From a virus (Duplodnaviria > Caudoviricetes), in the IMG/VR virus record IMGVR_UViG_3300028172_000069: DNA of 64,000 nucleotides; one strand, given 5' to 3'. The translations under genes were made by a program, and so were the position numbers. Numbering within the stretch: position 1 is the stretch's first letter; every line of letters starts with the position of its first letter. The notes beneath the pieces were generated by a model. It did not search any database and was not told where the DNA came from. It was given only the letters and a program-made list of their open reading frames with translations. Positions 1,892 through 56,400 of this stretch are shown in pieces.

Positions 1892-2701
1892 TTAAGGAGC
1901 GTCGCTGCCAATGACGAAGTAGTAGAAGTCCCAGCCGGTGGCAGCCACAGGTTGAGTCCCGCCAGCACCATCGCTCTCTTGTGCAAGCAGCGAGGTGTCC
2001 ACGGAAAGCTCTGCGTTACCCTTGTTCACCCGATCAATCCGCACAGCGTTCTTGACGTTGCTCTTCGGGTTAATGAACTGGATGTGCATTGTCCGAGGCT
2101 TGTCGGTGATGAACGACTCTGGGAAGATCACGCGCTGGAAAAGCGCAGCCTCGGTCGACGTGAAGCGGCCCCAGCACTTCAAGCTGAGGTTGTCGAATCG
2201 CTCGTAGGCATCGACTTCACCCACGCCGAACGTTGGCGTCTTACCATCTTGCCCTGCTGGGCCAGTCGGACCGGTGGGACCCGTCGGGCCAGTAGCGCCC
2301 TGAACACCGGGACCACCACTCGAACCTGCAGGACCGGTTGCACCCTGAGGACCCGGATCACCTTTGGGGCCAACGCAACCCTGATCGCCGACACGGCCGT
2401 CTTTACCGTTACGACCGTTCGAGCCGGGTTTGCCTTGAGGGCCAGTGGGACCCGTAGGCCCCACTCCCACCGACTGCGTTGTAAGGAAGCCACGGATCAG
2501 CAGCGTACTGCGATCCGCGCGGTTGAGAACGAGTGAGCCCGTCTCCGAGTCATAATCACCGGAGACGATTGTGGTATCACCGTTCAGATTCTCGTCATCC
2601 TGAAGCTCCAGCTCATTGCCGTTGAACTTCACAATGTCGTTGGTATCACCCGTGCCCGGATCGAGCAGCGGCAATGGCACCCTGGTCAGTCTACCAGTCA
2701 T
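1892..2701 (-). CDS. Collagen-like tail fibre protein
   Basis: About 25 Gly-X-Y triplets (GPTGPTGPQG...); N-terminal module shared with three other collagen-like genes. Confidence 0.8.
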   Translation of the reverse strand: MTGRLTRVPLPLLDPGTGDTNDIVKFNGNELELQDDENLNGDTTIVSGDYDSETGSLVLNRADRSTLLIRGFLTTQSVGVGPTGPTGPQGKPGSNGRNGKDGRVGDQGCVGPKGDPGPQGATGPAGSSGGPGVQGATGPTGPTGPTGPAGQDGKTPTFGVGEVDAYERFDNLSLKCWGRFTSTEAALFQRVIFPESFITDKPRTMHIQFINPKSNVKNAVRIDRVNKGNAELSVDTSLLAQESDGAGGTQPVAATGWDFYYFVIGSDAP

Positions 2702-2708
2702 AGTCTTC

Positions 2709-2879
2709 TCACTTCACGTTGAGCCATTTGGTGTTGTCCGAGGAGCGCACCTTGGTGTTGAGCGGGTTCATCTGAATCCACGACTTGTTGTCGCTCGCCC
2801 TGACTTTCCAACCCAGCTTGTCAAAGTTTTGAATCCACGGGTCGCTAACGGACTGTCGAACACGGAGTCTGACTGCCAT
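2709..2879 (-). CDS. Small Trp-repeat protein (56 aa), paralog of the N-terminus of the adjacent 1216-aa adhesin
   Basis: ATG overlaps the upstream stop (TAATG at 2877-2881); repeats of (K/R)VR.xxN.xW. Confidence 0.7.
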   Translation of the reverse strand: MAVRLRVRQSVSDPWIQNFDKLGWKVRASDNKSWIQMNPLNTKVRSSDNTKWLNVK

Positions 2880-5800
2880 TATCCGATCTCCCCAATGCTG
2901 TTGGCTTGACCTTTCCAATCTGCTGCTTTGGTCAGGTACTGGACTTGGTTGTTGTAGCGCACGCTGAATCCAGCATAGCCAGGCGTACAGTTCGGGATGT
3001 TCTTGTATCGCAGGATCACGTTGCGAGTCCCCGCGCGTACATCCACAGTGAGTGTTGCCACGCCAATTGGACCAGAGCCCACCTTCTTACAGTCAATGTA
3101 CAACTCATAGTCATCGTCCGAGATAACGGTGATAACGTGCGAGCCGCTGTACGTGAACGGGATGAAGGCTTGCATCAGGTACATGACGTTGCCAGCAGCG
3201 CAATCGAAGTTTGGCTGCACGTGCAGGAGATTGCAGCCATCAGGACCACCAGCGCGCTCGAACACTTGCTCGCTTGGGTTCTGGTTGCAGATCGCGCTGT
3301 CGTCATCCATGATCGTGCCGAAGCCACCAGACTTGGTGATGTTACCCTTCGACGCATTGCCGATGGTCATGCCCACGGTGCGATCAGGTTGCTGCACGTC
3401 GTTACCGAAGACTGGGACACAGACCTGCTTGGAAGTCTCACCCGGTGCGAACGTCACGGTACCCGATGTTGGCTGATAGTCACGCTCCTCAACCTTGATG
3501 CGCAGTGCACCTTCACTACCGCCTGCAGGAATCTTCTCGCAGTGCAGACCATCCCACGCTTGGTGATCGCCCCACGCAGTAATCATGGCAGCTACGCTGA
3601 TAGCACTACGATCCACTGAGCCGTAGAACTCCATCCCGAACAGGTTAGCCAACTGGTTGGCACCAGACTCGAAGACGTAGTGGTCAGTGATGACAACAAG
3701 GCCACCACCGCGCTTAGCGTACTCGGCGAAGTTGGCTACCGAACCCTCCTTCAGGATACCTTCAGCCGCTACACCAGTTGCCGTCACCCGCGAACCCATG
3801 AAGATGATGGTGTCATACGTCAGGAGCTCAGCCAGTGGGATAGCACCCACAGAGTTCCACGCGTACACGTCTTTCATCACAGGCGTGAAGCCAGCAGCCG
3901 TGACAGTACCCGGCAAGCTGATACCGAACCCGTTGGGCTGACTGTCGAGCGTGTAGTTCCCACCAGTCGCGTTGTCGCAGGTAATCAACACCTTGCCTGT
4001 GCGATTGTTGGTGCGCGCAGTCCACTGGATCAAGTTCTTCAGGTAGGTGAATGCAGGTGGCAGACCAATGCCGGACACGAACACGGAGCTGAACGTGGCG
4101 TTTGCTTGCGACTGGGCACAGAAGCCCCAGCTGGTCTGGCCTGTGAATGCGCTCAGGTCAGCATCTGCACTCAGGTCCACTTCGATCTTGGTGCCAGAGT
4201 CCAGTGCAACCGAACCAAAGGGTGAGCAGTAGATCGTGATGATGTTGCAGTCACGCTCAACCCGCACACGGGTCTGCCCACGACCATTCCAGTTCCCGTT
4301 GCCGCCAGAAGTCTTCGTCGCGAGCACCTTAGTAGGTACACCGTTGACAAGCAGCGTCAGATTGAAGTTACCACTACCATAACCTCCCATGCCACCGGGT
4401 ACACGCGATGCAACCAGATGGTAGTTGTCAGCACCAACACGGGCGAACGCAGCTACCAAGCCGATCATATCGTCATCCGCCTCGCCAGACGACAGCGTGG
4501 CCTCAAACGTGTAGCTCATGTACGACAGCGGCGAACAGAACGAAATCATCTTGGAACTGTTCGTGGTCGACTGGATGTTCCCGCTCGACAACCGCCATGC
4601 AGTAGCTTGCGATGCAGCAGGGATTGTGGTAGGGTCCGAGTAATACTCGTCGCCTGCCGTCCGCCACCACGAGTCGAATACGGCCTGACCAGTAGGTGCA
4701 TCCTGCGGCGCCCTGTAGGCATTGTTGTAGAACTTGGGGAACCCGCCATCGAATGCTGCACGACCAACGCCACAGTCCGCGACTGCGATAAAGGGGTTGT
4801 TGAACTCGTCGTTCGCCAAAATCCGGCCTTGGCAGATGAAGGGCTTAGCAGTACCGCCACCAGATTGGTAATCGACAGTCACAGGCATGGACTGCGGCTT
4901 ATCCATAGTCACGGTCCAGCAGAGTTGGGCAGTCTCACCCTCCTTGCCTTCCTTGACAATCGGATCGTCGATGCTGATGTTTGGATCCTCATCACCCGGG
5001 CACGTATGCAGGAACGACCACGAGGTCTTACCGCTGCCAGTTACCCGAATCTGGATCTTCTGACCACCAGCGGGGTTGTAGTTGAAGTACAGCCAGTGAT
5101 CGCCAGTAACAGGCCCACCAGTCGTCGCAACCAACGTACCGCCTTGATAGACGTCCAGCTTATCGGGGATGTTGTACATCTGGTAACGCACACCCACCTT
5201 ACCAGCATTCGGACCCATATCGACATAGGTGTCAGTAACACCAGCACCACCAGACGTCACGGCGCTCTGATCCGAACACGGCCGTGGATCATCTTCACTA
5301 CCCTTCTCGCCCGGACAGGTGATCAGGTAAATCCACGAGGTCCCAGGGTCCCGTGCAGTGATGCGCACCATGACAAGCTGCGACTCGGTAGGCGAATAGT
5401 CAAACTTCACATGGCCTTCGCCTGCCACGTATCCGCCAGTAGACTTGAGCAACCGTCCGTCTTGGAATACTTCGAGCTTATCCGGCTGGTTCCACATCTG
5501 GTAGTGTATGTCTACCAAGCCAGCCTTATCACCCATGGCGTGATAGAACTCAAACGTTCCCAACCCGCCTTCTTTCTTCACCTCGAACGTACCGTGGCAT
5601 GGACGTGGATCAGTGATTTCACCGTCCGTATCGTCGTCACCCACGCACTTCATCTGGAGCGTCCACTTGCTGGCCTTAGTAGCCCTAACCCGGACAAACA
5701 CCAGTGGGTCGTTATTCACCGGCGTGAACACGAACTGCAATACGCCTTTGCCAGTACGCTGCCCACCAGTGCTCGCAATGACCTTGCCGCGGTAGTACAC

Positions 5801-12220: not shown

Positions 12221-15200
12221 TTAATTCCCGAAGGTTACTTCGAAGGTCATCGTGCCGTTGCCGTCAAAGTCGGAGCGATACAGATACCAGTTGGATGTTG
12301 TGCCGGACGCATCAGTGCGCGCGACAGTGATTGGACCGTACTGCTCACCTACAGAGCCATCATCAGGCCAGGACGCTCCGTCGAATCCGCCTTCAAAGTT
12401 GGAGGCTTGGTCAACGAACTTGGCGAGGCCGAGTGTCGCAGGGTAGCAGAAGTACATGTATTCGCCAGCGCCAGCAGTCAGCGTAAACTTCTGGCCAGAT
12501 GCCATTGTAGGCAAATGGTTGGTCAGCTTGTCTGCAATCGCAGGGTCGTTACGCACGCCAATCTGGGCCAAGCCGTAGATCGGGGTACTGTCTACCTCAG
12601 CAATCACGCTAATCTCCTTGGTCGCCGTGACAGTCTCGAACCCTTCCTTGTACGTGGCCTTCAGGATAAACTTGAACGCTTTGGAGGCGTCAATTACGTT
12701 CACCTGACCAGCGCCGTTGACAACTACGCGACCATCTGGGGAAACGATGCTCCACTCAGGCTGCACAGGATGCCCTTTGCCTGGTGTCTCAGTCTCACCA
12801 TTACGGAAGAGCTCCGACGTGTAGAGTTCCTGCTTGGCACCGTTGATTGTCTCAGGCCCGTAGATCGCCAGCGACTTCAACTGGTCCTCATCGCCGATGA
12901 TGTTGATGACCATCGAATCGACAAGGGTATAGGTGCCACACTGGTACGTCGAGGTGATCGTGGCAGTCGTGGACTTACCATTCACGGACCAGACGAAGCC
13001 AGCACTATCAATTGCAGCCACGAGAGGATCAGCGTCAATCGTCCAGTCACTACTCACCAATAGCTCATTCGCACACTCCTCGAACACGATGGCATGGGAG
13101 TACGAACCACGCTCGGTGACGTAGAAGGCGGCAGGTCCAATGATCCGGCTGCTCACAGGCTTGTCAGGCGAGTTGACGATACGTGGCGTTACGGTGATTT
13201 CAAACTCGGCAATCTCCTTGAAGTAGCGGGCAATCGCCGTGACCTTGGTGTCCTTTTCAACCACACGTCCTTGCAGCACGCCAGGCGATACAATGTCCGC
13301 CATTGGGTCTGGATCGTTCAATGGGTCAGCAGACTGCACGGTCCACTGTGGGCTCACCGTTTCAAGCAATCCATCAGAGTACACGGCGGTGCCAGTGAGC
13401 ACAATCCGTGCACCTTCCATGACCGTGTTAGGGCCACTGATAATCAAGCCCTGAATGATCCGTGTGTTCGGAATCAAGACAAGTGGCTTGCTCTGCACGT
13501 ATGCCTTACCACCCAGCCGGTATGTAGCAACAACCTCCACGATACCAACCAGTGGGTCCTCGAACGACAGCAACCCGTTGACGTCAATGGATGCCCATGC
13601 AGGATCACCCTTAATCGACCACGTGGGCGTGATTTCCACGTCACGGCCATTGGAGTAGTGTGCGTATGCAGTGAACTTGCCCAAGCTGCCTTCCCGGACG
13701 TTATCCGGGCCCATGACAAGGATGTTGTCCAATGTCACCGGTGTATTGATGGCTACGATCTGCTTGATGGCATCCCGCCCGTTGACGCGAGCACGCAACT
13801 GGAGATTGACCGGTGTGGAGCCAACAGAGCCCACCTCCAGGTACCCTCTTTCGTCAATATAGAAGCGATTTGTTGTCCAATCTGCATCCACTATGCCCGT
13901 AGAACCATCCGAGAATCGGGCGGACACAACGTAGCGATTCTTGGTGTTTTCCACCACTTGGTTTGGTCCAAGAATCTCCGTATGCACCACGCTAACCGTC
14001 CGGCGGAGGAAGGACACAGGCTTGGTTGCCGTGAGCTTGACACCCTTGTACTGGTGCGTGGCCTTGAAGGTAATGTCCAACTCGGCCAGTGTCTCGGTGA
14101 TGTAGGCCTCACCATCAGGTGTGATGTAGATGGCACCACAGCCGGGATCCCATGCACCCAGTACGCCCTTGTGCGTTCCATCCGAGTAATGCGCCACGAG
14201 GGTGTATTGCTTCACCTCGTTCTCGTAGAAGCTGTCAGGGCCGAGTATCTCAAGGTCCACAAGGTGAACATCAGGGTCCACGAAGATGGCCTGCACCTTC
14301 TTCACGGCGGTGAGCGTCTGCCCATCAGGGAGCTTGCACTCGGCGCTCAGGATCACCTCACCATCAGCGTCGATCTGGTACACATGGAGGTTGTTGCCCT
14401 GCATGTAACCCAGTGTGGAGCGCGTGGTGATCGTCAGGTCGTGGGTTTCATCACCGCCTGTGGTATGAGCTACCACTTGGTAGGTGCCAAACTCGTTCGC
14501 ACGGACACTGTCAGGGCCTTGAATCTCGATGGTCCTGATGTTGCTGGCGCTGTTCTTCACCTTGACGTTCAGGCTGGCGGACATACCCTCGTACTCGCCA
14601 TAGATCACCACGTCGGTATCAAAGCTGACGTTGCCAAAGGAGGCGAAGTCACCATTGAAGCCCACGAGGCCAGTGCGACTACTGTTCCATACACCCTTCA
14701 CACGGACTGTCTGCGTGAAGTAGGTGTCCACTGCTGGCGTAGCAGGAGTACCCGGAATCGCTGGAGTGCCTGGTGTTGCTGGCACTGCTGGCTGGTATGG
14801 GACTTCTGGCTTACCTGGTACAGCAGGCACAGCAGGTTGGTATGGAATCTCAGGCGTCGCAGGCTGATAAGGCACTGCTGGCTTACCTGCTTGATACGGG
14901 ATTTCTGGAACAGCAGCCTGATATGGGACCTCTGGCTTGGCTGCTTGGTACGGCACTTCAGGAGAGCCTGGGTTAGCCGGTACTTCTGGCTTGCCCGGGA
15001 CTGCCTCGTGGTAGATCGAGTAACTACCGTTCTGCGGGTTAGGCACTTGGAAGTCGTATGTAGCTGAACCAATGCCCGAGAAGTCGGTACGGTACAGGTA
15101 CCACGTGAGCGTCACACCATTGACTGTGCGCTCAATCTCAATAGGCCCGTATTCATCACCTACGTCCTGATCAGGCCACGATGCACCATCCCATCCACCT

Positions 15201-18625: not shown

Positions 18626-18708
18626 GGGACACCTCATATTCGATTGGTGATAAATTACTGAGGAACACCGGGATTACTGTAAACCAACCATGTCTGCCAC
18701 TAATAGGG

Positions 18709-24716: not shown

Positions 24717-25457
24717 TCAGAGTTTCGACAAGTCCCAGATCACGTCGGACTGCGCAGCTACATACGCAGGGTCGAGAACTACGGACGTTTCAAAGCCCAC
24801 CAGGCCTTCGCACATGCGATAAGCCAGACGCCCATCAGGCAGCTGGTAGGTCGGACGACGTGGACGGGTGTGTACACATGGTGCACCGATACCCTTACCG
24901 ACACGTGCGCCACAGACTGGGCAGGTGTAGGACGAGTAGTACATGCCCATGGAGTAGGTGTTGATTTCACCACTCAGGAGCTTGTTCACCAGGTACGAGT
25001 CCTTGGTGCGGTCGAAGCCCATGAGTTTCACCAGCTTCGCAAACTTCTTGTTGCGTGGCAGTGGGCGCAGGTACGTGTCGAAGATCACGCCCTTGGCTTT
25101 GGTGATATCCTTGTTGTCGTGCTCGACGTGAGTAGGCTTGCCCACCCAGGTACGATACGCCATCTGGCCGAACTCAGGGTTGAACGCGGTCAGCTCCTTG
25201 AACGACGCACTGTCACCGTTGGTGTTTGGCACCGAGGTAACGATTGAGGGCAGCGCCACGATGATGTAGTCGCGGATATCCTCACTGATGCGATAGTGCG
25301 GTGCTGCCTGTTTCAGCCAGATGTTGGCGTCGAGAACGCGAGCGTCACCGCCAGCTTGTTGCGCGTCCAGCTCAAGGCCTTGCTTGGTCTGAGCAACACG
25401 GTGCATTTCCGTAGGCGCCAAACCCAGCGAGAAGCTGGTACTTACCATGTGTGTCAT
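24717..25457 (-). CDS. Prohead (capsid maturation) serine protease with Zn-finger insert
   Basis: N.NGD, GKPTHVEH, SMG, CPVC...C.H...C, FETSVVLDPA motifs of the phage prohead protease family. Confidence 0.75.
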   Translation of the reverse strand: MTHMVSTSFSLGLAPTEMHRVAQTKQGLELDAQQAGGDARVLDANIWLKQAAPHYRISEDIRDYIIVALPSIVTSVPNTNGDSASFKELTAFNPEFGQMAYRTWVGKPTHVEHDNKDITKAKGVIFDTYLRPLPRNKKFAKLVKLMGFDRTKDSYLVNKLLSGEINTYSMGMYYSSYTCPVCGARVGKGIGAPCVHTRPRRPTYQLPDGRLAYRMCEGLVGFETSVVLDPAYVAAQSDVIWDLSKL

Positions 25458-25801
25458 CGGTCGCCCCTTTGGACTACGTGCTTAACCCACGACCGCGCTT
25501 CTTTCATGGTCATGGGTTGTGGGTTAATGAGAAACGGCTGTCCGCCTGCGAGTGTGACGTGAGGGCGCAGTCTCTCACCTTCATCGTCCTCGTCCACATG
25601 CGGGAAGTCGAACGGATCAAACTCACCGCCGTGCACCTTAGCCGTCCAGATGCGCAGCGAGTGACTATGATCGGTTGACGGCTCTTCCCGAGTGCTGATC
25701 GTTGCGATCTGCTTGTCACCCAGGAGAACGTGCCAGGTCTTGCGTAGCGCAATCGGCTTACGCATTTCCGCTTTATCGCAGCGGTAACGGATTCGCTCCA
25801 T
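25454..25801 (-). CDS. Hypothetical protein
   Basis: 115-aa ORF with GGAGG RBS; 4-nt overlap with the protease gene. Confidence 0.55.
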   Translation of the reverse strand: MERIRYRCDKAEMRKPIALRKTWHVLLGDKQIATISTREEPSTDHSHSLRIWTAKVHGGEFDPFDFPHVDEDDEGERLRPHVTLAGGQPFLINPQPMTMKEARSWVKHVVQRGDR

Positions 25802-25854
25802 ATAGCCTCCGTTATACGAGGGCAGTTGCGAGGATCAGAGTGATTTGCATGGAG

Positions 25855-27309
25855 TCACCAGTTGAGGAAAGATACGTGGTAGAGACCGTGGTCTTCGTTC
25901 ATTCCAACCGCAACAATCGTGCGATTAGGACCCGATGTGTAGAAGAGATAGGTCTCTTCACCTGGGTCGGTTACGTGGTCTCGCTCACGCAAGATACCTT
26001 GGGAACTCAATGCCTTCTCGAAGGTAGTTGCGAGTGTCTTCAGGTCCACGCTGCTGTGTCCGTAGAAGCTCTTGCCGGGAATACCTTTCGGACGTTCACC
26101 GACAATTGGCAGTGCTGCGTTGAACACTGTGCCGTAAACGTCCACGTGAGAAGATGCGATGGCACTGAACATCTCCTTCGATTGGGCGTGCAGGTCGTCC
26201 ATATCCATGTTGCGTAGGTAGCTCTGGGTTTGCGTGATGATTTCGTTGACTGTCTGGTAGTTCTGCTCTTCAGGAGTCATGTTACCATCAGCCGCGGTCG
26301 ATGCGATGCCTTTGAAGTCTTCCCAGGTATCGAGCAGGCCGCGTGCAACGATCATCCCAAGTGGGCCAGCGCCGAGTGCAAGCATCGTGACACCAGCACC
26401 TAAGATGGCAGCTTTGACAACGAAGCCCAGCACGGCTTTACCATCGCGCTGTTTCTTCTTGTCCTTGTGACCCTTGCCGCCTTTCTTATCCTTCTTGCCC
26501 TTCTTCTTTTTCTTCTTGGACTTCTTGTCTTCCTCCTCGTCCTCTTCTTCCTCATCAGCGTCGTCGCTAAGTTCAGGGTCGTTGGCCTTGTCACCTTCGG
26601 TGATGGGCTTGCCATCAGCGTCGAACTCTGGCTGGCCGTCAGAGTCTACTGCTTGGCGATCAGGGTCAGTCTCCTTATCGCCTTCGCTGCGGTTGTCGTC
26701 GTCGTGCGTGGATGCGGCGTCACCTTGCATCAGATCGCGTACAGCACTCAGGCCACGATCGAACAGGTGTGGCTTGTCTTTCGCCTTGGCATCGACCACG
26801 TCGTGAATCTCGTCGCGGTTCTCGTCGATGTTGTTGGCACCGCGCTTCAAGTGCTCTGGCTTGATGTTCTCCAGAGCCTTCACGGACTCGCGATTGATAA
26901 CGCCAGCGCCGTCATCGGTGAGAATCTTGCGCTGCTTATCGACCTCTGCCATGTTCTCCTTGGAGCGCTTGGTGCGATCCTTGCGAGACTCTTTGGTGCT
27001 GATCTTGGTATCCTGCACACGACCCTTGCCGCCTTTGAAGCGAGGCTTGTGACGGCTCTTTGGGTAGCGTTCATCGTACTTGGCTTTCGCCTTATCGCTG
27101 AGGCCGTCGTACTCAGTCCGCGTCAGGCGACGCTGCTTGACTGGCTCGGTGTGCCCCTTCTTTACCGTCTTGCCCTTGAGCAGGAACCGGTGCTTGCTCT
27201 TGGGATACTTCTCCAGATACTTCTTCTGGCCCGACGTCCCCAGTCTCAGGAAGTCGTCCTTGTTCAGGCGCTTCTGCGGCGCTGCTAGCGATAGGCTGAC
27301 GAGGAGCAT
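25855..27309 (-). CDS. Charged, probable internal virion protein with a hydrophobic segment
   Basis: Two KY.E(K/R)YPKS.H repeats, poly-acidic then poly-Lys tract, hydrophobic stretch AVLGFVVKAAILGAGVTMLALGAGPLGMIV; start codon inferred. Confidence 0.6.
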   Translation of the reverse strand: MLLVSLSLAAPQKRLNKDDFLRLGTSGQKKYLEKYPKSKHRFLLKGKTVKKGHTEPVKQRRLTRTEYDGLSDKAKAKYDERYPKSRHKPRFKGGKGRVQDTKISTKESRKDRTKRSKENMAEVDKQRKILTDDGAGVINRESVKALENIKPEHLKRGANNIDENRDEIHDVVDAKAKDKPHLFDRGLSAVRDLMQGDAASTHDDDNRSEGDKETDPDRQAVDSDGQPEFDADGKPITEGDKANDPELSDDADEEEEDEEEDKKSKKKKKKGKKDKKGGKGHKDKKKQRDGKAVLGFVVKAAILGAGVTMLALGAGPLGMIVARGLLDTWEDFKGIASTAADGNMTPEEQNYQTVNEIITQTQSYLRNMDMDDLHAQSKEMFSAIASSHVDVYGTVFNAALPIVGERPKGIPGKSFYGHSSVDLKTLATTFEKALSSQGILRERDHVTDPGEETYLFYTSGPNRTIVAVGMNEDHGLYHVSFLNW

Positions 27310-28390
27310 TTTGGAATCCCATGATTGTGGCAATATCGTTCGCCAGGCGGCCGTCGATCTTGGGCGCCAGCTTCATTGCGTGTTGAATGTTTTCTTTGGC
27401 CCGGGTCATCTGACCAAGAGAGAAGTAGCAGACGGCGAGCAGGTGATACGGCCAGTGCTGGTAGTATTCATCCCGATGGATCATGCTCACCTGAGGCTGA
27501 GTCTCGACGCGCAGGGCATTACGGAGCATGCCAATGCAAGGCTCGTATTGGCCACACTGGAAGTACAAGAAGGCGAGCGCACAGAAAGGCTCACGGGCGC
27601 TTGGGAACTCGGCGATTGCGCGATAATGCCACGCTTCGCATTCGTTGAGCGCTTCTTCCAGTTGACCATCCATGGCGAAGTAGCACTGGGCGATGTACAG
27701 CGCAGACTCAGAGCGGAACGGACCATGGGTTTCGATTTCGATGTGCTTCTTGAGCCACATGATCGCGTCGAAGTATTGACCCTGGTACATGAACTCACGG
27801 CCGAGATACTGGACCATGCGTGCGTCGTCTGGATTCTCCTCGACACCCTTTTGCAGGAGTTCAAGGTAGGACGAACGCGGCTTGTCGTTGTCTGGCTCAT
27901 GGAACACGTCGATCGGAAGTTCCTTGTACGTGTAGTTCTCGTAGCAAGCGAGGAGCTCATGCACTGGATACTTCCAGTAGAAACCGTGGCGCGTGTGGAT
28001 TGCTTCGCGCAGATAGGAGACGATGGGCTTGCGCGCTTCATCGTATTGGAAGACCAGACGCACCGCGTACATGTGGTGCGAACGGTTGGAGATCAGTTCC
28101 TTGATCTTGGTAATGCTTCCCGGCTCCATGACCTCGTCAAGGTCAATGAACATGCAGTAATCCACATCCATGCTGACGAGGTTCATGGCGGAGTTACGCG
28201 CCGTGTCGAATCGGAAGGGTTCAAATGCCATGGAGCTGACTTTGACGCCCAGCGACTTGAGGGCCTGCTGGGTACCATCTGTCGAGCCCGTGTCCAGCAC
28301 AACGATTTCGTCAGCGTCCTTGACGCCTTCAAACCAGCGAGAGACGTGCTTGGCTTCGTTCTTTGCAATTGCGTATACGGCGAGTTTCAT
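27113..28390 (-). CDS. GT2-family glycosyltransferase with C-terminal TPR repeats
   Basis: AIAKNEAKHV, VVLDTGSTDGT, FDTARN, FIDLDE (DxD), followed by TPR-like helices (PDDARMVQYLGREF, PSAREPFCALA). Confidence 0.85.
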   Translation of the reverse strand: MKLAVYAIAKNEAKHVSRWFEGVKDADEIVVLDTGSTDGTQQALKSLGVKVSSMAFEPFRFDTARNSAMNLVSMDVDYCMFIDLDEVMEPGSITKIKELISNRSHHMYAVRLVFQYDEARKPIVSYLREAIHTRHGFYWKYPVHELLACYENYTYKELPIDVFHEPDNDKPRSSYLELLQKGVEENPDDARMVQYLGREFMYQGQYFDAIMWLKKHIEIETHGPFRSESALYIAQCYFAMDGQLEEALNECEAWHYRAIAEFPSAREPFCALAFLYFQCGQYEPCIGMLRNALRVETQPQVSMIHRDEYYQHWPYHLLAVCYFSLGQMTRAKENIQHAMKLAPKIDGRLANDIATIMGFQNAPRQPIASSAAEAPEQGRLPETGDVGPEEVSGEVSQEQAPVPAQGQDGKEGAHRASQAASPDAD

Positions 28391-28449
28391 TCGGGTAACT
28401 CCGGGTTAGCTTCTCATGGAGATAGCAGTTGTCGATTAACGAGGCGCTT

Positions 28450-29115
28450 TCAGCTTGTTTTGCGGACAGGCTTGCTGTTACGCAAGCTCGTCTGAGCACT
28501 CTTGAGTGAGGTCTCCAATTTGGCTAGCGACGCTTCCAGTTCTCTGCGTGCGCGCGGTGTCTTAGCGTCGCTGATTTGGCGTTTTGTGATTGCGATTTGG
28601 TTTGCTAGTTTGCGAATGTTGCGGCGCAAGAATGGGCGACCTGCACCACCTTGCGTTGCGCGGGATGCTTTCTCGCTGCGCTGTACCGTGGCGCTATCGC
28701 CTGCACGTGGTGTCTTCTGGTTGCGCGGAAGGTGACGCTTGGAGTGATCGGCTTTTGCTTGCTGGGCTTTGGTAAGCTGCTCAGTCGCACGCTCCAGTTT
28801 GGCGTTCAAAGGAGTAGACAATTCACCCTTAAGCGCTTTGATGACTTCGCGTACGGATTTGATCTTGCCTCGCACGGTTTCGATGCGGGCTTTTGTTGCC
28901 TGCGGTGTGACAGCACGACGAGTGCCATTACCTTTCAGCTTGGCCAACGTTTCTTTCAACGTGTCCAGCTTTTTGTTCTGGCTTGCGATCTTGGTCGCAA
29001 TGGAAACGTCTTTCTTGAGTTCCTTGACGCGCTCTTGGTGCTCTTTCAGGTTCGCCGGCTTTGCAGCAGCAACGGACTCGAAGCTATCGTCCGCGCGAAT
29101 GATGATCTTGCCCAT
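28450..29115 (-). CDS. Highly basic leader-family protein 1
   Basis: Starts MGKIIIRADDSFESVAA; Lys/Arg/Ala-rich coiled coil. Confidence 0.75.
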   Translation of the reverse strand: MGKIIIRADDSFESVAAAKPANLKEHQERVKELKKDVSIATKIASQNKKLDTLKETLAKLKGNGTRRAVTPQATKARIETVRGKIKSVREVIKALKGELSTPLNAKLERATEQLTKAQQAKADHSKRHLPRNQKTPRAGDSATVQRSEKASRATQGGAGRPFLRRNIRKLANQIAITKRQISDAKTPRARRELEASLAKLETSLKSAQTSLRNSKPVRKTS

Positions 29116-29142
29116 GATGGGTTCCTTATGGACAGGTAGTGA

Positions 29143-30129
29143 TTAACGCGAATCGCGCAGACCGAGCTTCACATCGCGACCGTATTCGGCAGCTTTGCGT
29201 TTGTCGGAATCCACTTGCTTGCGGTGTACGCGCGTGGCGGCCTTCTTGCTGCGCTCGTTGGCAGCCTCGTCTTTTGCACGCTGCGCAGCCGATGGCTTCA
29301 TTTTGGTCAGTGCAATGCGAGTGGAGTTGTAGGACTTCTCCAGAGCTTTGAGCTCCTTGGCCGCCATGTTTTTCGACTCGGTAGTGCGCGCATTGGCAAC
29401 CTTGCGCTTGGCCGCTTCTACAGCCCGACCGATCTGGTTGAAGCGCGTCATCAGCTCTTTGCGCTCACGATCATAGTCGGCCGACGGTGCAGCAGGCGTT
29501 GCCTTGGTGGCTTTCTTCTTCTCGAACAGGTGACCGCTGTAGACCAGGTCAGGTGCCTTGCCAGCTTCGAGTTTGCGAACGTCACGCTTGGCGCTGCGAA
29601 TGCGATGGATCAAGTCATCTTCATCGCCTTTGCCCGCTTCGTTTGCGCGCTCCAGAGACGTGATATGCTTCTGCAAGGTGCGGATGGAAGCGTCTTTGTT
29701 CTTGAGGACGTCTTTGCGCATGACGTCACGGCCAGCGGCGTGTTCCTTGGACGCAGTACGGACAGTGGTACTGTGCTCTTTCTGCGCTTCTTTGGCATGC
29801 GCCAGCTTCTGCGCTACTTCGTCCGGATCAGTGTGGCGCTGGTTCGACAGCTTGCCTTTGAGAGCGCGCACTTGCTCTTTGGCATCAGCCACGGCTTGCT
29901 TCGCCTTGTCGCGCTTGGCGATGTTACCGGCAACCTTCGGAGCGTGCTTGAGTTTCGCCAGCGTATCGCGTGCCTTTTCTTCGGCGGTGCGTTGCTTCTT
30001 GATATCCTTGGCGATCTTCAAGTCTTTGGTAAGATTGGTGACGTGCTGCTTGTGCTCGTGGGTGGAGTTTGGTGCGCGTGCTGCAACAGCCTCGAAGGAG
30101 TCGTCCGCGCGAATGATGATCTTGCCCAT
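29143..30129 (-). CDS. Highly basic leader-family protein 2
   Basis: Starts MGKIIIRADDSFEAVAA; Lys/Ala-rich. Confidence 0.75.
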   Translation of the reverse strand: MGKIIIRADDSFEAVAARAPNSTHEHKQHVTNLTKDLKIAKDIKKQRTAEEKARDTLAKLKHAPKVAGNIAKRDKAKQAVADAKEQVRALKGKLSNQRHTDPDEVAQKLAHAKEAQKEHSTTVRTASKEHAAGRDVMRKDVLKNKDASIRTLQKHITSLERANEAGKGDEDDLIHRIRSAKRDVRKLEAGKAPDLVYSGHLFEKKKATKATPAAPSADYDRERKELMTRFNQIGRAVEAAKRKVANARTTESKNMAAKELKALEKSYNSTRIALTKMKPSAAQRAKDEAANERSKKAATRVHRKQVDSDKRKAAEYGRDVKLGLRDSR

Positions 30130-30185
30130 GCTGTGCTATTCCTTGGTCTTGTGGAAAGCGGCCCGTTGCGAGCCGCTATCTGGCC

Positions 30186-31283
30186 TTACTTCTGCTTGAT
30201 CTTGCCTTCGAGGCGAATGATCTTGGCATTCAGGCTTTGCAGTTGAATGCTCAGCTTACCGTACAGCGGACCCTGACCTTTGGCTGCGGTGACACGCTTG
30301 CGCAATTCTTTGGCCTCAGCCTTGGCTTTCTCCAACATGCGTTCCAGCTTGGCGCGCGCTTCTGGCGTGGTGCCCATGCTCTTGGTCTTCGGAGTAGGAA
30401 CAGCAACCGGCTTGACAGGCTTCACTTGCTTGACGCGACGACCGTTGACTTCGGCTGGCAGCTTCGGCTTACCTTCGGCTGTAGCACCCTTACGCAGTTC
30501 ACGCAGCGCACCGCGCAGCTTCGCCAGGTCGGCTTGCATGTGCGGCTTTTTGGTAGGAGTGGCGTTCGCCAGCTCTTTCTTGAGCGCGTAGATTTTGGTC
30601 AGGGTGTTCTTGATCGCAGTGGCGTTCTTGTCGTCTTTGTGAGTCAGCACCTTCGCTGGCTTCTTGGTAGACGCGGTCGGCTTGACTACTGGCTTTGGCG
30701 CAGGCTTGAGTGCCTGAGCTTCGTGCTTGTCGAGGGTCACCTTGACGGTGTGCTTCAACTTGCCAGAGGCGGTCTTGGCTTGCTGCGCGAACTTGGCAGC
30801 AGGATCTTTCGGAGTGCGTGGAATCTTCGCACCAGCACCACCGATGCCGGGACCACCGATGTTCACTTTCGGCTGCTTGGGCGCCAAGGCTTCTTTGGCC
30901 TTGCGTACCTTGGCACGCTCTTTGGCATCAGCTTCCTGTTGAGTCAGGCGGGCGATACGGTCTTCGTGCTTGGCGATCTGCCCTTCAAGCTTGGTGATCT
31001 GGCGTTGCATCCCGAGCACTGTGTCCTTTGTGGACAGTGCGTGCTTCTGGCGCTCGGCGCTGATCTTGCTGCGAATGGATTCTTTCTGACTTGGCGGTAC
31101 GTGCTGCAGGCGCAGCTTGAGCGCAGCAATGCGCTTCAACGGCTCGACTTTCTTTTTGCGTTCTTTGATACCAGTCTGAGTGGACTTGATGAGAGTCTTG
31201 TACGCCTTGATCTTGGACGCGTAGGTATCTTGCATCGCGATGGCCTCGAAGGAGCCGTCGGCGCGAATGGTGAGAAGTGCCAT
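30186..31283 (-). CDS. Highly basic leader-family protein 3
   Basis: Start reassigned to ATG 31283 (AAGGAG RBS): MALLTIRADGSFEAIAM; Lys/Pro/Ala-rich, histone-H1-like composition. Confidence 0.75.
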   Translation of the reverse strand: MALLTIRADGSFEAIAMQDTYASKIKAYKTLIKSTQTGIKERKKKVEPLKRIAALKLRLQHVPPSQKESIRSKISAERQKHALSTKDTVLGMQRQITKLEGQIAKHEDRIARLTQQEADAKERAKVRKAKEALAPKQPKVNIGGPGIGGAGAKIPRTPKDPAAKFAQQAKTASGKLKHTVKVTLDKHEAQALKPAPKPVVKPTASTKKPAKVLTHKDDKNATAIKNTLTKIYALKKELANATPTKKPHMQADLAKLRGALRELRKGATAEGKPKLPAEVNGRRVKQVKPVKPVAVPTPKTKSMGTTPEARAKLERMLEKAKAEAKELRKRVTAAKGQGPLYGKLSIQLQSLNAKIIRLEGKIKQK

Positions 31284-31293
31284 GAATAACTCC

Positions 31294-31713
31294 TTAGATT
31301 TTCTTAAGGCGGGAGAGGCCTTTGCGGATACCATCGACGTACTGCTGAGCGTTACGGACTTCGCGAGCTGCGTCGTCGTGTGCTGCTTCATCGGCACTGT
31401 CAGGCATTTTGGCGAGGCGGGCGCGAGCAACCTTGAGCTTCTCCAGGCCGATGGCCAGATCACGCTTCAAGTGCTGGACGGCTTTCGAGTCAGTGGTGAC
31501 CAAAGCTTTCTTGTCGTGCGTGTTGTCGTAACCGTTCAGCAGCTCCATGAGCCGCGGGTAACCACGCACACCCTTTGGACGAAGACCCTCCGAGTGGAGA
31601 ATCTCCGTCGCATGTTTGTAGTACGGGTGCTTCTGAATCGTCTTCCAGTCCGGATCGTCGTCGGACGCAACGGCCTTGAAGCTATCGTCAGCACCAATGA
31701 GAATCTTGGCCAT
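31294..31713 (-). CDS. Leader-family protein 4
   Basis: Starts MAKILIGADDSFKAVAS; ATG overlaps the ligase stop (TAATG). Confidence 0.7.
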   Translation of the reverse strand: MAKILIGADDSFKAVASDDDPDWKTIQKHPYYKHATEILHSEGLRPKGVRGYPRLMELLNGYDNTHDKKALVTTDSKAVQHLKRDLAIGLEKLKVARARLAKMPDSADEAAHDDAAREVRNAQQYVDGIRKGLSRLKKI

Positions 31714-33641
31714 TAGGGCACCTTGTACTTGGTTCTGAACTTGTCGACGGACATGACCGGGATATCGTTGTCCTTGGCGTATTCCGTCTTGTTGTTGGAT
31801 ACGTACTCGTCTTTCACAATGAGTAAATTAGCAGATTTGGCACTGGATGCCATCTTTCCACCATTCGCCACGATCCATTCAGCCAGTTCTTTATCGCGCA
31901 CAGAGGTGAACAGGACAGCCATGTTGCGCATTGCGTGGCCAGTGATACGGGTCTGCTTGGGCTGCACAACCTTGACGTCCAGCTTCTTCAGGAACAGGCG
32001 GAATTTGGGCATCACCTTCGCTGCGGTGACAGCCAATTCCTTGAAGCCCTTGACGCGCTGAATCTCCTCGATCATGCGCTTCTCACTCCAGTCCGCATAG
32101 ACGATACCTGGGAGGGCTTTGAACAGATCACTCAGGCGAGACTCACCGAACTTATCACCGAAGAGCACACTGCCTGCGCCGAGCTTGGCGAGTGTTGCAT
32201 TCTTGGCAAGACTGTTACGGATGTTGCGCTCCAGCGTCACGGCTTTGGAGTGACCGAAACGAGGAATCTCCTCGAAGTCGGCTGCCGTGGCGTTGATGAT
32301 CTTCTTGATCGTGGTGAAGCCATTGTCGATCAGAATGTCGATGGTGCCACGCTTCAATCCATCCACTTCAAGGGCCGTGAAGAAGTTGAGCAGCGACTTG
32401 GCTTTACGGTCGTCACCGCCTTCAACAGCGTAATAATGCACACCATCAGACTCGAACGCGACACTTGGCTGTGCAGGCTTCTTGGCGGCCTTGACAACTT
32501 CCACGATGTACGGAATCACGTCACCAGAGCGCACGCAACGAATGATTGCACCCTTGTTGATCGGGCGTGGCTCGTATGGAATCTTGGAGTCTTTGAGTTT
32601 CGACGTGTAGCCGTGCTCGATGTAGAACCCGTTGTGCCCAGTGAAGTGCTCGACCATGACTCCGCCAATGCGAGTTGGCTTGATCAGGATGCGTGGTGCC
32701 AAGCGACCATAGCGCGACTCGTTGAACTCGACGTCCAGCACAGGTACTTCCACAGCAGCTTCCAGATCGTTGATCTTGAAGGCGAAGGAATGTGTTGGAT
32801 ACTTACCGACAACGGTGTACGAGCGGTCTTGTGCAACCACGATGCCGTCGATTGCACGCTTGGCGCGAGTGCGACGGATGTTCAGGAGATTCGTGAGGAT
32901 GGTCTCGTTGAGTTTCGGGTAGACCTTGTGTGGTACTACGTCGAAGCCCAGAGCTTTGAGGTATGCGAACTGCTTGGAGGGTGCAACGCGAGCATTTGGA
33001 CCAGCCATGATTTCGTGCGCAATGCACTTGACCTTGGTGATCGCAGTCGTCGGTTGGTTACGGTTGAGCAGGCCACCAGCGCCGTTACGCGGGTTGTCGT
33101 ACTCGCCACCGTTCTCCTTGTTGAAATGTCGATTGAAGGTCTGCTCACTCATGGTGAACTCGACACGCACAATCAGGTCTTTCGGCTTGACGCGATGCGG
33201 CACTTTCAACGCCGGGATTACTCCAGACGAATCAGTGCCGATCTTACCGTCACCGCGCTGTACTGCCTTCACCAGCACATGGTTTTCATACACCAACTGC
33301 AGGCTGATGCCGTCTTCCTTGTCGCTGACAACGAATGGGCCTTTTTCCAAGAACGCCAAAAGCCCGGACGAGCCGGGCTTGAGTTTGCTAAGACTACCCA
33401 TGGCAACGGCCAGCTTAGTGCGGCGCGCTACATGAGTGGATTTGGAGCCGACGCGAGCATACGGCTTCTTGGCGCGTTCGTCGTGAACATCGCGCAGGGT
33501 GTCGTACACTTTGTCGCCTACGCTTGGCTTGTTCTGGTCGTGGTACTCGTAGTCGAACTTTTGGAGGAGCTTACGCAACTCGCCCAGAGTCATACCCTGG
33601 GCTGCTGCTCTTGGATTCCGTTTGATCTGCGCGAGGTTCAT
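31713..33641 (-). CDS. ligA: NAD-dependent DNA ligase
   Basis: Ia domain (YH.....SVGDKVYD), motif I KEDG, NPRNGAGG, IDGIVV, OB fold (GRLAP), HhH (GFGHSKA-type), C-terminal BRCT; no Cys4 zinc finger seen. Confidence 0.95.
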   Translation of the reverse strand: MNLAQIKRNPRAAAQGMTLGELRKLLQKFDYEYHDQNKPSVGDKVYDTLRDVHDERAKKPYARVGSKSTHVARRTKLAVAMGSLSKLKPGSSGLLAFLEKGPFVVSDKEDGISLQLVYENHVLVKAVQRGDGKIGTDSSGVIPALKVPHRVKPKDLIVRVEFTMSEQTFNRHFNKENGGEYDNPRNGAGGLLNRNQPTTAITKVKCIAHEIMAGPNARVAPSKQFAYLKALGFDVVPHKVYPKLNETILTNLLNIRRTRAKRAIDGIVVAQDRSYTVVGKYPTHSFAFKINDLEAAVEVPVLDVEFNESRYGRLAPRILIKPTRIGGVMVEHFTGHNGFYIEHGYTSKLKDSKIPYEPRPINKGAIIRCVRSGDVIPYIVEVVKAAKKPAQPSVAFESDGVHYYAVEGGDDRKAKSLLNFFTALEVDGLKRGTIDILIDNGFTTIKKIINATAADFEEIPRFGHSKAVTLERNIRNSLAKNATLAKLGAGSVLFGDKFGESRLSDLFKALPGIVYADWSEKRMIEEIQRVKGFKELAVTAAKVMPKFRLFLKKLDVKVVQPKQTRITGHAMRNMAVLFTSVRDKELAEWIVANGGKMASSAKSANLLIVKDEYVSNNKTEYAKDNDIPVMSVDKFRTKYKVP

Positions 33642-42727: not shown

Positions 42728-42845
42728 TCCGTCAACAGTTTCTGAATATAGTTGGTATGGAAACACAGGACAACCGTCTATGGTACTTGGCCACGTGACT
42801 GACATTGTACGCTGTAAATTAGCACACCGTATTCAGGTTGACGGA
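42728..42845 (-). promoter_or_regulatory. Long rod-like 5' leader hairpin that pairs the sheath RBS and contains a candidate late promoter
   Basis: Nested inverted repeats on the minus strand: UCCGUCAAC/GUUGACGGA, CUGAAUA/UAUUCAG, GGUGUG/CAUACC, UACAG/CUGUG, ACAAUGUC/GAC(G)GUUGU; TAATTTA at 42815-42821. Confidence 0.7.
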
Positions 42846-52853: not shown

Positions 52854-53363
52854 TTAGCCGTTCCTTTTGTTCTTGTCGTGGTTACCCTCGTTGGTTTCGA
52901 GGACCTGGGCACGCGCTGTCTTCGACTGCACAGTGTCTTCGCGCTGTGGACTGTCGGTGACAAGGCGCTCTTCCTTGACCGTGGTCTTGTCGTTCACGTC
53001 GGCAGTAGGCTGCGGCGTTTGGACTTGACCAGCGGTCTTGGCAACTTCTGCCTGCGCACGGGCTTGCGAGGCTTCGATGCGCTTGGTGTGGTCTGCCATG
53101 ATTTCTTTCGCCTTCTCAGCGTCGAGCGAGCGATGGCCGATCAAACCCTTGGCCTGATAGACCCAGTTCTTCGGCAACTTGTCGCGCTCACCGAAAGGCA
53201 GGCCGCCGTTCGGGTACGCAGGCAGGAACGACACATCGGCCTCGAAGTCTTTCTTGGCTTGGATGGTGGCGGCGCTCCAGATACCGTCGATGTTACCCTT
53301 GTAGTAGCCGAGATGGAACAGCACCAGCTGCTGCGCCATCATCTTCTCTTTGGTGATTTGCAT
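52854..53363 (-). CDS. Peptidoglycan-binding domain protein
   Basis: QQLVLFHLGYYKGNIDGIWSAATIQAKKDFE = PG_binding_1 signature; low-complexity C-terminus. Confidence 0.75.
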   Translation of the reverse strand: MQITKEKMMAQQLVLFHLGYYKGNIDGIWSAATIQAKKDFEADVSFLPAYPNGGLPFGERDKLPKNWVYQAKGLIGHRSLDAEKAKEIMADHTKRIEASQARAQAEVAKTAGQVQTPQPTADVNDKTTVKEERLVTDSPQREDTVQSKTARAQVLETNEGNHDKNKRNG

Positions 53364-53407
53364 TGCACTCTCCTCAAGAGTCAGGGGACCGAAGTCCCCG
53401 TTCTCAG

Positions 53408-56400
53408 TTAGTTGCGTTTCTTGGCAGCGCGGAACTTGATTTCCGCAATCTCTGCCTTGAGCACGTCAGGCTCGGCAATGTTGATGCCCGCCGCTTTCAG
53501 CTCCTTGACCTTGGCATTCAAGTCAGCCTTGTTGGCAGGGAAGTACATCAGTGCGCCCGGAGACAGCTGCCATTTGGTCGCTGCACCTTCGATTGCTTTA
53601 CCAATGTGCTTCTTGATGATCGGCGAAGTAGCAACGTCGACCACCAGCATCACCTTGTCTTCCATGAAGAACGGATAGATGCGGACCTCTTTGCGATCCT
53701 TAACCATCTGCTTGCGCGTGGCGAAGAAGTGCGGCAGCTCATGCTGCGAAGCCAGCTCCATCTGATACAGACCACGTCGACCTTTAGCGAACGTTTTGAA
53801 GAACGCATCCAGTCGGTCGATCGTCTGATCGCTCAGGTGGAAGTTGTCCTCGATGTAGTCCATCACCTTGTTCGCCTGATCACGACGCTTCACGGTGATG
53901 AACGCATACTCGCCGATTTCCTTGAACTTGAACTTCTTCAACGCCTTGGTGTAATCCAAGTCGTCAGTCTCAAGCGTCAGGAAGCCGTGGTAATATGCCG
54001 GGGCCAACTTCAACGGAGTATCTTCCGTCTCCTCATCCTCACGACGTACGGTCGTAGGAATCTTCATGCCAGGGTCATACTTCACACCCTGATTGACAGG
54101 CTTGCCTTCCTTGATGTTGCGCGAACGTTTCTCGCCAGCGTCAATGGAGCGCACGCGAACGTTGGCTTGGCGCGTCTCACGCTTGTTGCGACGTGCCTCT
54201 TTCGCAGCTTCCTTCTGGTCCAGGAGTTCCTGATCCTTCGCTGCACGCTCTGCACGGGCAATGTCCGCTTTACGATAAGCCAGGCTCACCGCGAAGTTTT
54301 GCTCGATTGCCTTCTTGCTGATGACAGTCGGTGCGTAGACAATACCCATGTCGTTGAAGGTAACCAGCTCGCCAGTTTCCTTGAGCTTGATCTGCAGGCT
54401 GGAGATCGGGCGATCCTTGTTGACCACGCCTTCTTTCGCAGTGCCGACGTAGCGGACCTTGACCGAGACAACCATGCCGTTGCCCATGTCAGTAATCATC
54501 GGCTGACCGACGAGCGACTGTGGGTTGTCAACGTACGGCTGACCTTCTGGATCGCGCAGCAGCTTCGACAGCGGCAGCGGTTTCCAACCATTCGGGTCCT
54601 TGATGTTTTGCGCGGACACGAACGGGGTCTTGATCTGCGCACTGCCCTCGATGACCGGAGTCTGAGGAACAGGCAGCATTTCGGCAGGCTGAGTCACGCG
54701 CATTTCGTGGAACTCGGCACGCATGATGCCGTTGAGTTGCGCGTAGCTGTTCACGTACTTCTGGAAGTCATGCAAGGAAGGACGTTCCTGCAGCACGTTG
54801 GTGATCGACAGACTCACCTCAGGCAGCGCGTTCTTACCAAGCACGTCGTTGTACAGCGGGTTCTCGGCCTCGTCGAAGCGGGTCTTGTTGAAGACCTTAG
54901 CGATCAGACGTGCCTGCTTCGGTACTTCCATGGTGTTGTCAGCGAGCACCCAGTCGAGGAACACGACTTCGCGGTAAATCTCACCTTCAGCAGCGCCCTT
55001 AGGATCAGGACGGAAGATACGCGATGCAGACTGGTCGAGTTCACCTGGACCCCACGGCGATTCAACACGAATCAGGCGCGATGCGATCTGAAGGTTGTGG
55101 CCTTCGGACATGCCCATTTCGTTCGCAATGAGAATCTTCACCTTCGGGTCAGACTTGAAGGCGTTCAGGTTGCCCCACTTGTCCACTTCCTTACCCGTGA
55201 ACTTGACAGCCATTGCCTTGTACTTCTCAGGCAGCGCGTCGTATACAGCATTCACCGAGTTGGTGTAGCGGCAGAAGATGATAACCTTACCAGGCGGCTC
55301 CTTCTTCCAGATATCGTTGTTGTCCTCAGGGCGTTTGCCCATGGTGTCGCGAGGCAGCAACGCACGACGGTACGACGACTGATCCTGCTTACGAGCCAGG
55401 TACAGGTCACCCTTACGCGCAACGAGTTGGTACTCGGTGTAGATAACACCCGGGTCCCACTCAGGCGGATTGAAGTGATCTTTGACAATGCCAGCGATCA
55501 CGTTCGCCTTACGCGAGGTGTACTTCTTGATGCCGTACGCACCGAAGATTTTGGGGAACGCAGGGTCTTGCTCGGGCGCGATAATCAGCCGCTCGATACG
55601 TTGCAGGTACGCCTTGACAAGATCGGCGTCCAGCATGCCGAGTTCGTCTTCGTCGCCCAGCTCCATGTCCTGCGAGCGTTCGCCGTCTTCGGACGATTCC
55701 CCGTCGTCACCGTCATCATCATCGTCTTCGTCTTCATCAGCCGAACGAGTACGCTTCTTGGCGGCGGCCACGAGTTTTTGCAGTTCCTCCACAGACTCGT
55801 CAACAACGAGGTCATAGAGTTGGCGATGCAGTTCGCCTTTACGTTGCTCGTCAGCTGGATCGGTGTCCACATGGAACTTGACAGCGTGGAACTCTTCGAT
55901 CGGAGAAGGCAACATGAACGCCCACTCTTTCTTCTTCTTGGTGACAACTGCGGCGTAGCGCGACAGACGTTGCCGTGCGCGTTGCGGCGTGTTCACCTTC
56001 CACAGCTGGACAGAATCGTCACCCAGCGTCAGTGTCTCTTCCAAGGCCTCGGCCAAGTTCGAGCCAGCCAGCTCACCTTTACGGAAGATGTGCGGCGAGT
56101 ACAGCGCTACCTGGCCTTCAATGTCAGTGACACGGTCAGCAATCAGGGTACCGGTGGCGATACGCAGGTAGTCGATGAACGAAGCTGTGGTCAACTGCTT
56201 GACGACCTTGTGCTTCGCAGTCTTCTGCCCTTTCAGCTTGTGGCTTTCGTCGATGATGACGTAGTTGAACTTGAAGGCCTTGATGAACTCCAGGTTGGTG
56301 CCAACGTCGATCACGGCGTTACCGATAACCACCGACATCTTGTTGTTGCGCAGGAAGTTGAAACCTGCAACGCAGATGGTGTTCGGTGGCGCAGTCGCGA

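Follow-up and report, generated by a model that had tools for sequence, protein, structure and literature searches.

What is the role of a short peptide that opens four consecutive and otherwise divergent genes of one phage? The genes in question, here called P1 to P4, lie in tandem on the minus strand of a 64,000-nucleotide stretch of viral DNA (hereafter the window; it covers bases 13005-77004 of an IMG/VR viral contig of 102.9 kb, record IMGVR_UViG_3300028172_000069), and a previous inspection of the letters alone (the sequence-only reading) had taken their common N-terminus for a portable leader that loads DNA-binding cargo into the phage head. We confirmed the tandem arrangement and found all four starts as that reading had quoted them. 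The prohead protease encoded in the window is 77% identical to the protease of the Pseudomonas jumbo phage PaBG (genus Baikalvirus), and the gene order of the cluster region is that of PaBG genes 215-226; judged by these matches, the window derives from a relative of PaBG. The same P1 protein also occurs on a 265-kb contig in public assemblies, and a search of phage records for closely similar DNA returned no match.

The explanation that we favour, with modest confidence, is that P1-P3, and in a modified way P4, are basic alpha-helical proteins of a single, rapidly evolving family of the PaBG-like jumbo phages, and that they would be made late and would then enter the prohead. On this account, residues 1-12 of the leader (M-x-K-I-x-I-x-x-D-[DG]-[ST]-F) would act as a flexible address peptide and residues 13-17 (E↓[AS]-V-A-A, the arrow marking the predicted cut) as the recognition site of a gp21-like prohead protease that cuts after Glu13, leaving basic proteins of 23-38 kDa (isoelectric point, pI, 10-11) alongside the DNA in the head as functional counterparts of the internal proteins of phage T4. 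The bodies, especially those of P1 and P2, would be swapped as cassettes with the identical leaders as recombination points, so that copy number (1-4) and sequence vary between phages that are near-identical elsewhere.

The leader and the proteins that carry it

P1-P4 share the consensus start M-x-K-I-x-I-x-x-D-[DG]-[ST]-F-E-[AS]-V-A-A, with 13-17 residues in common, and thereby show the arrangement that characterises a T4-type capsid-targeting sequence (CTS) and its internal proteins, in which several small proteins of a phage diverge apart from a short N-terminal peptide that they have in common. The leader motif has exactly four occurrences in the six-frame translation of the entire 102.9-kb contig. 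Searches with a hidden Markov model of the leader, an approach suggested by the sequence-only reading, recovered only cluster genes at E<0.1 from the six-frame contig and the complete PaBG genome, and a profile search of the complete 277.6-kb genome of a relative (G001) matched only its three cluster genes. When the profile search was extended to 1.84 billion representatives, the leader was found at residue 1 in about 20 clusters (50% identity), all from PaBG-like phages and all consisting of basic helical proteins (pI 10-11.3, 139-426 residues). None of the 29 profile matches was an enzyme or an unrelated fold bearing the leader, so that no natural fusion was seen among them. Because every leader-bearing cluster consists of basic helical proteins and none has another fold, the leader is, on these comparisons, the distinguishing mark of a single diverging family.

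The leader is conserved as a peptide. Its 28 distinct variants are all on basic proteins and have Glu at position 13 in 23 cases, the remainder (P4 of the window included) having Lys, Gln or Met; among 13 P1-P3-type proteins, M1, I6, D9, S11 and E13 are invariant. Ser11 is encoded by agc, agt, tcc, tcg and tct, which span both serine codon families, and the codons for Asp, Phe, Glu and Ile vary as well. Because these residues are kept through many synonymous changes, the leader is, by this codon evidence, under selection as protein. The DNA of the P1 and P2 leaders is 87% identical over 54 nucleotides, in agreement with the near-identity reported earlier.

The bodies had been described as otherwise dissimilar, with only the leader shared, which overstates the case and is true for P4 only. 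The first 125 residues of P1 and P2 show 38% identity (E 7e-21), P1-P3 can be aligned and have motifs in common, and P4 has nothing in common with them apart from the leader; on these alignments P1-P3 are one diverging paralog family of basic helical proteins. The Lys/Arg-rich, basic character of the proteins was borne out (P1-P4: pI 9.4-11.2, Lys plus Arg 19-24%). They had also been described as mostly coiled-coil or like histone H1. In an AlphaFold2 model of P1, residues 1-20 are unstructured (predicted local distance difference test, pLDDT, ~50) and the rest of the protein folds into helical hairpins (pLDDT 85-95), and the Atlas model of P4 is a helical hairpin too. Scans of P1-P4 against Pfam and PHROG gave sub-threshold noise only (NPV_P10, phrog_7303) and no Pfam family of linker histones or histone-like proteins, the likeness to H1 being one of composition (K/A/P-rich stretches in P3). 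A Foldseek search with the P1 model against BFVD and the Protein Data Bank (PDB) returned generic helical matches at E >0.01 and none below E 1e-3, and an Atlas search with P4 returned generic coiled coils only. Pfam, PHROG and the Foldseek searches of BFVD and PDB likewise revealed no homology of P1-P4 to the T4 internal proteins or to the phiKZ_IP family (PF12699).

Leader-like sequences elsewhere were also considered. A degenerate DNA pattern of the leader, run across IMG/VR, found 10 stretches, of which five are Baikalvirus relatives and five correspond roughly to chance expectation, one of the latter being the N-terminus of an HK97-type (S78) protease. PaBG gp83, a virion protein that starts MLIKINLLEAVAAKA, was rejected as a short-leader homolog on the ground that its orthologs in two relatives (L028 and L029) are without that start; gp83 nevertheless bears a cleavage-type site of the kind described below. 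The leader-like N-termini of the capsid protein (MVLKDGSPIEDL) and of gp82 (RGIVVAGNSLE) were rejected as conserved fold elements in which the Glu is not conserved, and N-terminal enrichment was not significant. Two further sequences are recorded here as observations. The 300-residue hypothetical protein PaBG_00299 (PaBG 245221-246123) starts with MKRTHASLLSSAE followed directly by SLAAKFKQRYPN, the junction being a cleavage-type site at residue 13, and then has a YP-x-S motif that is present too in the 484-residue head-module protein. In the more distant relative L034, a 191-residue K/A/P-rich open reading frame (ORF; 2673-3248) lies directly upstream of the protease and contains an internal Met followed by KISLDLNGYESDSAEAL; it is possibly a distant analogue of the leader family.

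The cleavage-type motif in head proteins

We derived the motif E[AS][VILT][AS][AMSG] from the leaders alone and censused it in the complete PaBG and G001 genomes, using gene sets from our own ORF caller. PaBG contained 18 matches compared to 7.5 ± 2.7 in composition-preserving shuffles, and G001 contained 18 compared to 7.2 ± 2.5. In PaBG, gp79-gp83 and the portal protein account for 3.1% of residues and for 12 of the 18 matches (binomial p 1e-14), with 0.47 matches expected and a maximum of 4 in 2000 shuffles of the same proteins. Control motifs, either reversed or with D or Q/K/R replacing E, gave no matches in the head sets of PaBG and G001. Each of P1, P2 and P3 contains a single site, located at residue 13; their bodies and the neighbouring genes contain none. 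Because the leader-derived motif is concentrated in head proteins and is Glu-specific, the second half of the leader in P1-P3 is very probably a prohead-protease substrate site, with cleavage after Glu13.

The match in the PaBG capsid protein, SAREE↓AVAAAE, would convert a protein of 40,167 Da to a mature form of 32,133 Da, a predicted loss of 20.0%, and this site is supported because the published mass loss of the capsid protein is ~20% (PMC7412058). Capsid protein and leaders change together in the residues that follow the Glu (AVAA in PaBG, ATAA in G001), and an N-terminal site in the portal protein is positionally conserved (E42 in PaBG, E45 in G001). PaBG gp82, an acidic protein of 643 residues encoded two genes upstream of the capsid gene with gp81 between, has 7 sites compared to 0.28 expected, and its orthologs have 5, 4, 6, 2 and 2, several of them positionally conserved. 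Because of these multiple, partly conserved sites, gp82 is probably a scaffolding or core protein degraded by the protease. Its gene (PaBG 52918-54849; orthologs in L028, L029 and L033-L035) is annotated '60S ribosomal-like protein L2-A'. The sequence-only reading had pointed to the rule by which phiKZ-type proteases cut after S/A/G-x-E; the S-F-E of the leaders conforms to this rule, but it is apparently on the P' side (A-V-A-A) that specificity is conserved.

The presumed processing enzyme is encoded 3.0 kb from the cluster, at the downstream distance given earlier. It had no Pfam or PDB sequence match, and a PDB profile search gave zinc-finger noise only. When its AlphaFold2 model, which is poor (pLDDT 60), was compared with 48,161 PDB chains, the top match was T4 gp21 (5jbl_A; Z 4.2, root-mean-square deviation 3.7 Å over 103 residues) and the next reached Z 2.8, which suggests that the protease is gp21-like. 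A complex prediction for the protease and the first 45 residues of the leader family scored 0.01, was run without controls and counts neither way. In the distant relatives L033-L035, the protease gene and homologs of the two head-module genes of Table 1 lie directly upstream of gp82, gp81 and the capsid protein gene. In T4-type systems the prohead protease acts inside the assembled prohead (PMC5694885). From a protease site in P1-P3 and a T4-type enzyme acting in that compartment, we infer that P1-P3 are located inside the prohead and are cleaved there at E13; that residues 1-12 do the targeting, and that the mature proteins bind DNA or are ejected, is our conjecture.

One other protein of the window has sites of this type. 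The 287-residue ortholog of PaBG_00197 (61659-62522, minus strand; PaBG_00197 is near the head-to-tail joining gene) contains FE↓SIAS, EE↓STAS and FE↓AVAAGS, three sites compared to 0.08 in shuffles (p ~2e-4), the last of which is conserved in PaBG. By its motif content, this protein may be a further prohead-protease substrate.

Probable cassette exchange, expression and alternatives

The cluster contains a hypervariable region. In comparison with two strains whose flanking genes (those for the KMPT protein, ligase, P4, glycosyltransferase, the 484- and 115-residue proteins and protease) are 99-100% identical, P3 is 96-98% identical, P2 62% and P1 46%; P4 orthologs are 86-99% identical in close relatives. 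DNA homology to one relative, L006, is lost across the cassette listed in Table 1 and is back immediately past the P1 stop. In L022, one gene has a P1-type body behind the P2 upstream region and leader, a fusion that speaks for recombination at the leaders. Leader copy number is 4, 4, 3, 3, 3 and 2 across relatives, and PaBG has one intact leader and one degenerate one (gp219). The leaders change in concert within each genome, reading RADDSF in the window, FSDDSF in L006 and L007 and LDGTF in G001. This variability fits cargo that acts in the host after ejection, or cargo of which only the charge is needed. In L008, a 65-residue ChaB-like ORF (13642-13839) and a 168-residue ORF stand in place of the P1/P2 cassettes, downstream of a P3-type gene, showing that the cluster slot accepts unrelated genes.

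The candidate late promoter that had been noted before the cluster is supported as a candidate by a conserved word, TAATTTA, that is also found at structural genes. The word has 5 copies in the window compared to 0.78 expected, all on the minus (coding) strand (535-541, 1430-1436, 18651-18657, 31824-31830 and 42815-42821). The copy within the ligase gene includes TTA, which is rare (26 of 2433) among Leu codons, and GCTAATTTA is kept in 8 of 8 relatives despite variable flanking synonymous sites. PaBG has 14 copies and G001 has 17, most of them 5-150 nucleotides upstream of genes, many of which are structural (sheath, gp82-like and others). By this distribution, TAATTTA is a candidate for the late-promoter core of the phage group. 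A coding-strand scan for sigma-70 promoters and intrinsic terminators gave no prediction from 24.5 to 36 kb, and the T4 late box TATAAATA is absent. A GC-rich hairpin (gcggc-tcgcaacgg-gccgc, then tttcc) that the simple scan missed lies between P3 and P2 (30135-30180, minus strand) and could act as a weak terminator or in RNA processing.

Several observations weigh against the reading of P1-P4 as internal proteins. The motif was fixed after the capsid-protein sequence had been seen. P4 of the window has Lys at position 13 and would not be cleaved, Glu being the residue at this position of P4 in L008 and G001; with K13 in P4, Gln or Met in other variants and the motif lost from PaBG gp219, cleavage is not universal in the family, and P4 may be an uncleaved member or have another role. 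P4 is translationally coupled to the DNA ligase, its ATG overlapping the ligase stop (TAATG) in all relatives, and a glycosyltransferase gene separates the cluster from the protease. The whole cluster is missing from more distant relatives that have the same ligase-glycosyltransferase-protease order and the same protease. The earlier picture of a portable leader on dissimilar cargo is weakened by the finding that all leader carriers are of the same basic helical type. Finally, the one proteome available for a relative, an analysis of the PaBG virion that examined 14 Coomassie bands by matrix-assisted laser desorption/ionization does not list gp219-222 (PMC7412058), although this absence is weak evidence because the method is shallow and mature gp220 (31,898 Da) would co-migrate with the mature capsid protein (32,133 Da).

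Some of these points suit an alternative in which the proteins coat DNA or organise the nucleoid in the cytoplasm, perhaps together with the ligase encoded next to them, their common N-terminus serves for docking or oligomerisation outside the capsid, and its likeness to a protease site is incidental. The overlap of the P4 start with the ligase stop in all relatives, the very basic and helical nature of the proteins, their absence from the PaBG virion band table and the tolerance of Lys or Gln at position 13 in P4-type leaders all agree with such a role. We nevertheless think it unlikely, given that the motif taken from the leaders shows specificity both for Glu and for head proteins, that P1-P3 each have a single site at a fixed position, and that the conserved late-type promoter word inside the ligase gene belongs to the cluster, which with a promoter word of its own need not share the timing of the ligase.

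Somewhat less probable still is that the P proteins are auxiliary scaffold or core assembly factors, setting head size or organising the core, which are trimmed and then lost or retained rather than delivered as cargo. Helical-hairpin, coiled-coil architecture is typical of scaffolding proteins, the cluster is near the protease and head-module genes, and the P proteins have a cleavage-type site. However, the likely scaffold gp82 is multi-site (4-7) and would be degraded, whereas P1-P3 are single-site and would stay whole; P1 and P2 differ by 40-55% and copy number ranges from 1 to 4 while head genes are 99-100% identical, unlike essential structural parts; and the cluster is missing in relatives with the same head module.

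That the common start is merely left over from tandem duplication and gene conversion and is maintained by constraints at the level of DNA or translation initiation, without a role as a protein signal, would agree with the paralogy of P1-P3, with the concerted leader change within genomes (RADDSF, FSDDSF, LDGTF), which indicates gene conversion, and with copy-number changes by recombination at leaders, but we consider it very improbable, as the residues are kept through many synonymous changes that include both Ser codon families, the leader outlasts bodies diverged beyond recognition (P4) and persists over ~20 clusters at 50% identity, and the upstream DNA is not conserved.

Known counterparts and neighbouring genes

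Read as an internal-protein-like family, P1-P4 resemble T4 IPI, IPII and IPIII in having a short (10-20 residues) common N-terminal peptide on several small, mostly basic proteins, in the cleavage after Glu by a gp21-type protease that is predicted here (PMC5694885), and in bodies that vary strongly between related phages, only the leader being conserved (PMC3012670). In T4, only the CTS is conserved among diverse internal-protein cargo, and it is removed by gp21 (PMC3012670). In contrast to the T4 system, the present proteins resemble neither the T4 CTS nor the internal proteins in sequence and match nothing in PHROG or Pfam, their bodies are long helical hairpins that diverge within a single paralog family rather than unrelated folds, the apparent specificity is on the P' side (E↓A-V-A-A), and the genes are tandem and appear to recombine through the leader.

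Among jumbo phages, the first 15 residues of SPN3US gp53 and gp54 are the same and include A-x-E-12 and S-x-E-15; in phiKZ gp93 the cut falls at SLE-13 (PMC5694885), as far from the start of that protein as E13 is in P1-P3. Family A of these phages (PF12699: SPN3US gp53 and gp54; phiKZ gp93, 94, 95, 162 and 163) is likewise made up of jumbo-phage paralogs with variable copy number. Its members, however, have propeptides of >100 residues with further cuts, whereas a single cut and a 13-residue propeptide are predicted here, and the present lineage is PaBG-like, without a phiKZ-type head. The T4 core proteins gp22, gp67 and gp68 are similar in being helical, encoded near the protease and processed by it, as is predicted for P1-P3. 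T4 core proteins are conserved and are cut into small fragments, whereas P1-P3 are single-site, hypervariable and apparently dispensable, and the multiply-cut scaffold role of the T4 proteins suits PaBG gp82 better than P1-P3.

New here are the leader sequence, the apparently P'-side cleavage code, the tandem hypervariable helical cargo and the phage lineage; because the principle itself is already known, the value lies in the new lineage and in concrete predictions. If correct, the internal-protein reading would provide a predicted capsid-targeting tag in a tractable phage (PaBG grows on P. aeruginosa PAO1), a predicted prohead-protease cleavage code with maturation sites in capsid, portal and scaffold-like proteins, and candidate ejected proteins whose fast turnover suggests that they take part in an arms race. 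The reading would carry the T4/phiKZ principle of a leader plus variable cargo over to a third, unrelated jumbo-phage lineage and demonstrate leader-mediated cassette exchange, and the tag could package chosen proteins in phage heads, as has already been done with the T4 CTS. We offer only tentatively a further extension, in which PaBG-like phages keep a diversity-generating internal-protein locus: a 13-residue capsid-targeting propeptide with its own code (E↓A-V-A-A) and leaders that shuffle the cassettes between phages would supply the head with hypervariable, helical DNA-coating cargo that is co-injected and protects or organises the incoming 260-kb genome against host defences, and the tag would be usable for foreign proteins in a Pseudomonas phage.

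Table 1. Features of the cluster region, in window coordinates
Feature	Position	Strand	Description
Prohead (head-maturation) protease	24717..25457	-	PHROG 18299 at E 6e-104; presumed processing enzyme
Two head-module genes (115 and ~484 residues)	25454..27309	-	Between cluster and protease; without cleavage-type motif
Hypervariable cassette	28430..29501	-	C-terminal third of P2 and entire P1; DNA homology to L006 breaks, flanks 93-98% identical
P1	28450..29115	-	221 residues, leader MGKIIIRADDSFESVAA; single cleavage-type site, E13
P2	29143..30129	-	328 residues, leader MGKIIIRADDSFEAVAA; P1 paralog; single cleavage-type site, E13
P3	30186..31283	-	365 residues (counted from the ATG within the listed GTG ORF), leader MALLTIRADGSFEAIAM; K/A/P-rich helical body; PaBG gp220 ortholog; single site, E13
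P4	31294..31713	-	139 residues, leader MAKILIGADDSFKAVAS; Lys instead of Glu at position 13
TAATTTA promoter-like word	31824..31830	-	In 3' end of NAD-ligase gene, 111 nucleotides upstream of P4 start

Two neighbouring genes have features of their own. The gene between the leader cluster and the head module (27113-28390, minus strand) encodes a GT2 glycosyltransferase with tetratricopeptide repeats, and ~200 nucleotides at its low-complexity 3' end are shared with the beginning of the following gene. The ORF of the 484-residue head-module protein (25855-27333, minus strand) starts MLLVSLSLAA, has K-rich, acidic and hydrophobic segments and contains a conserved YPKSKHRF.

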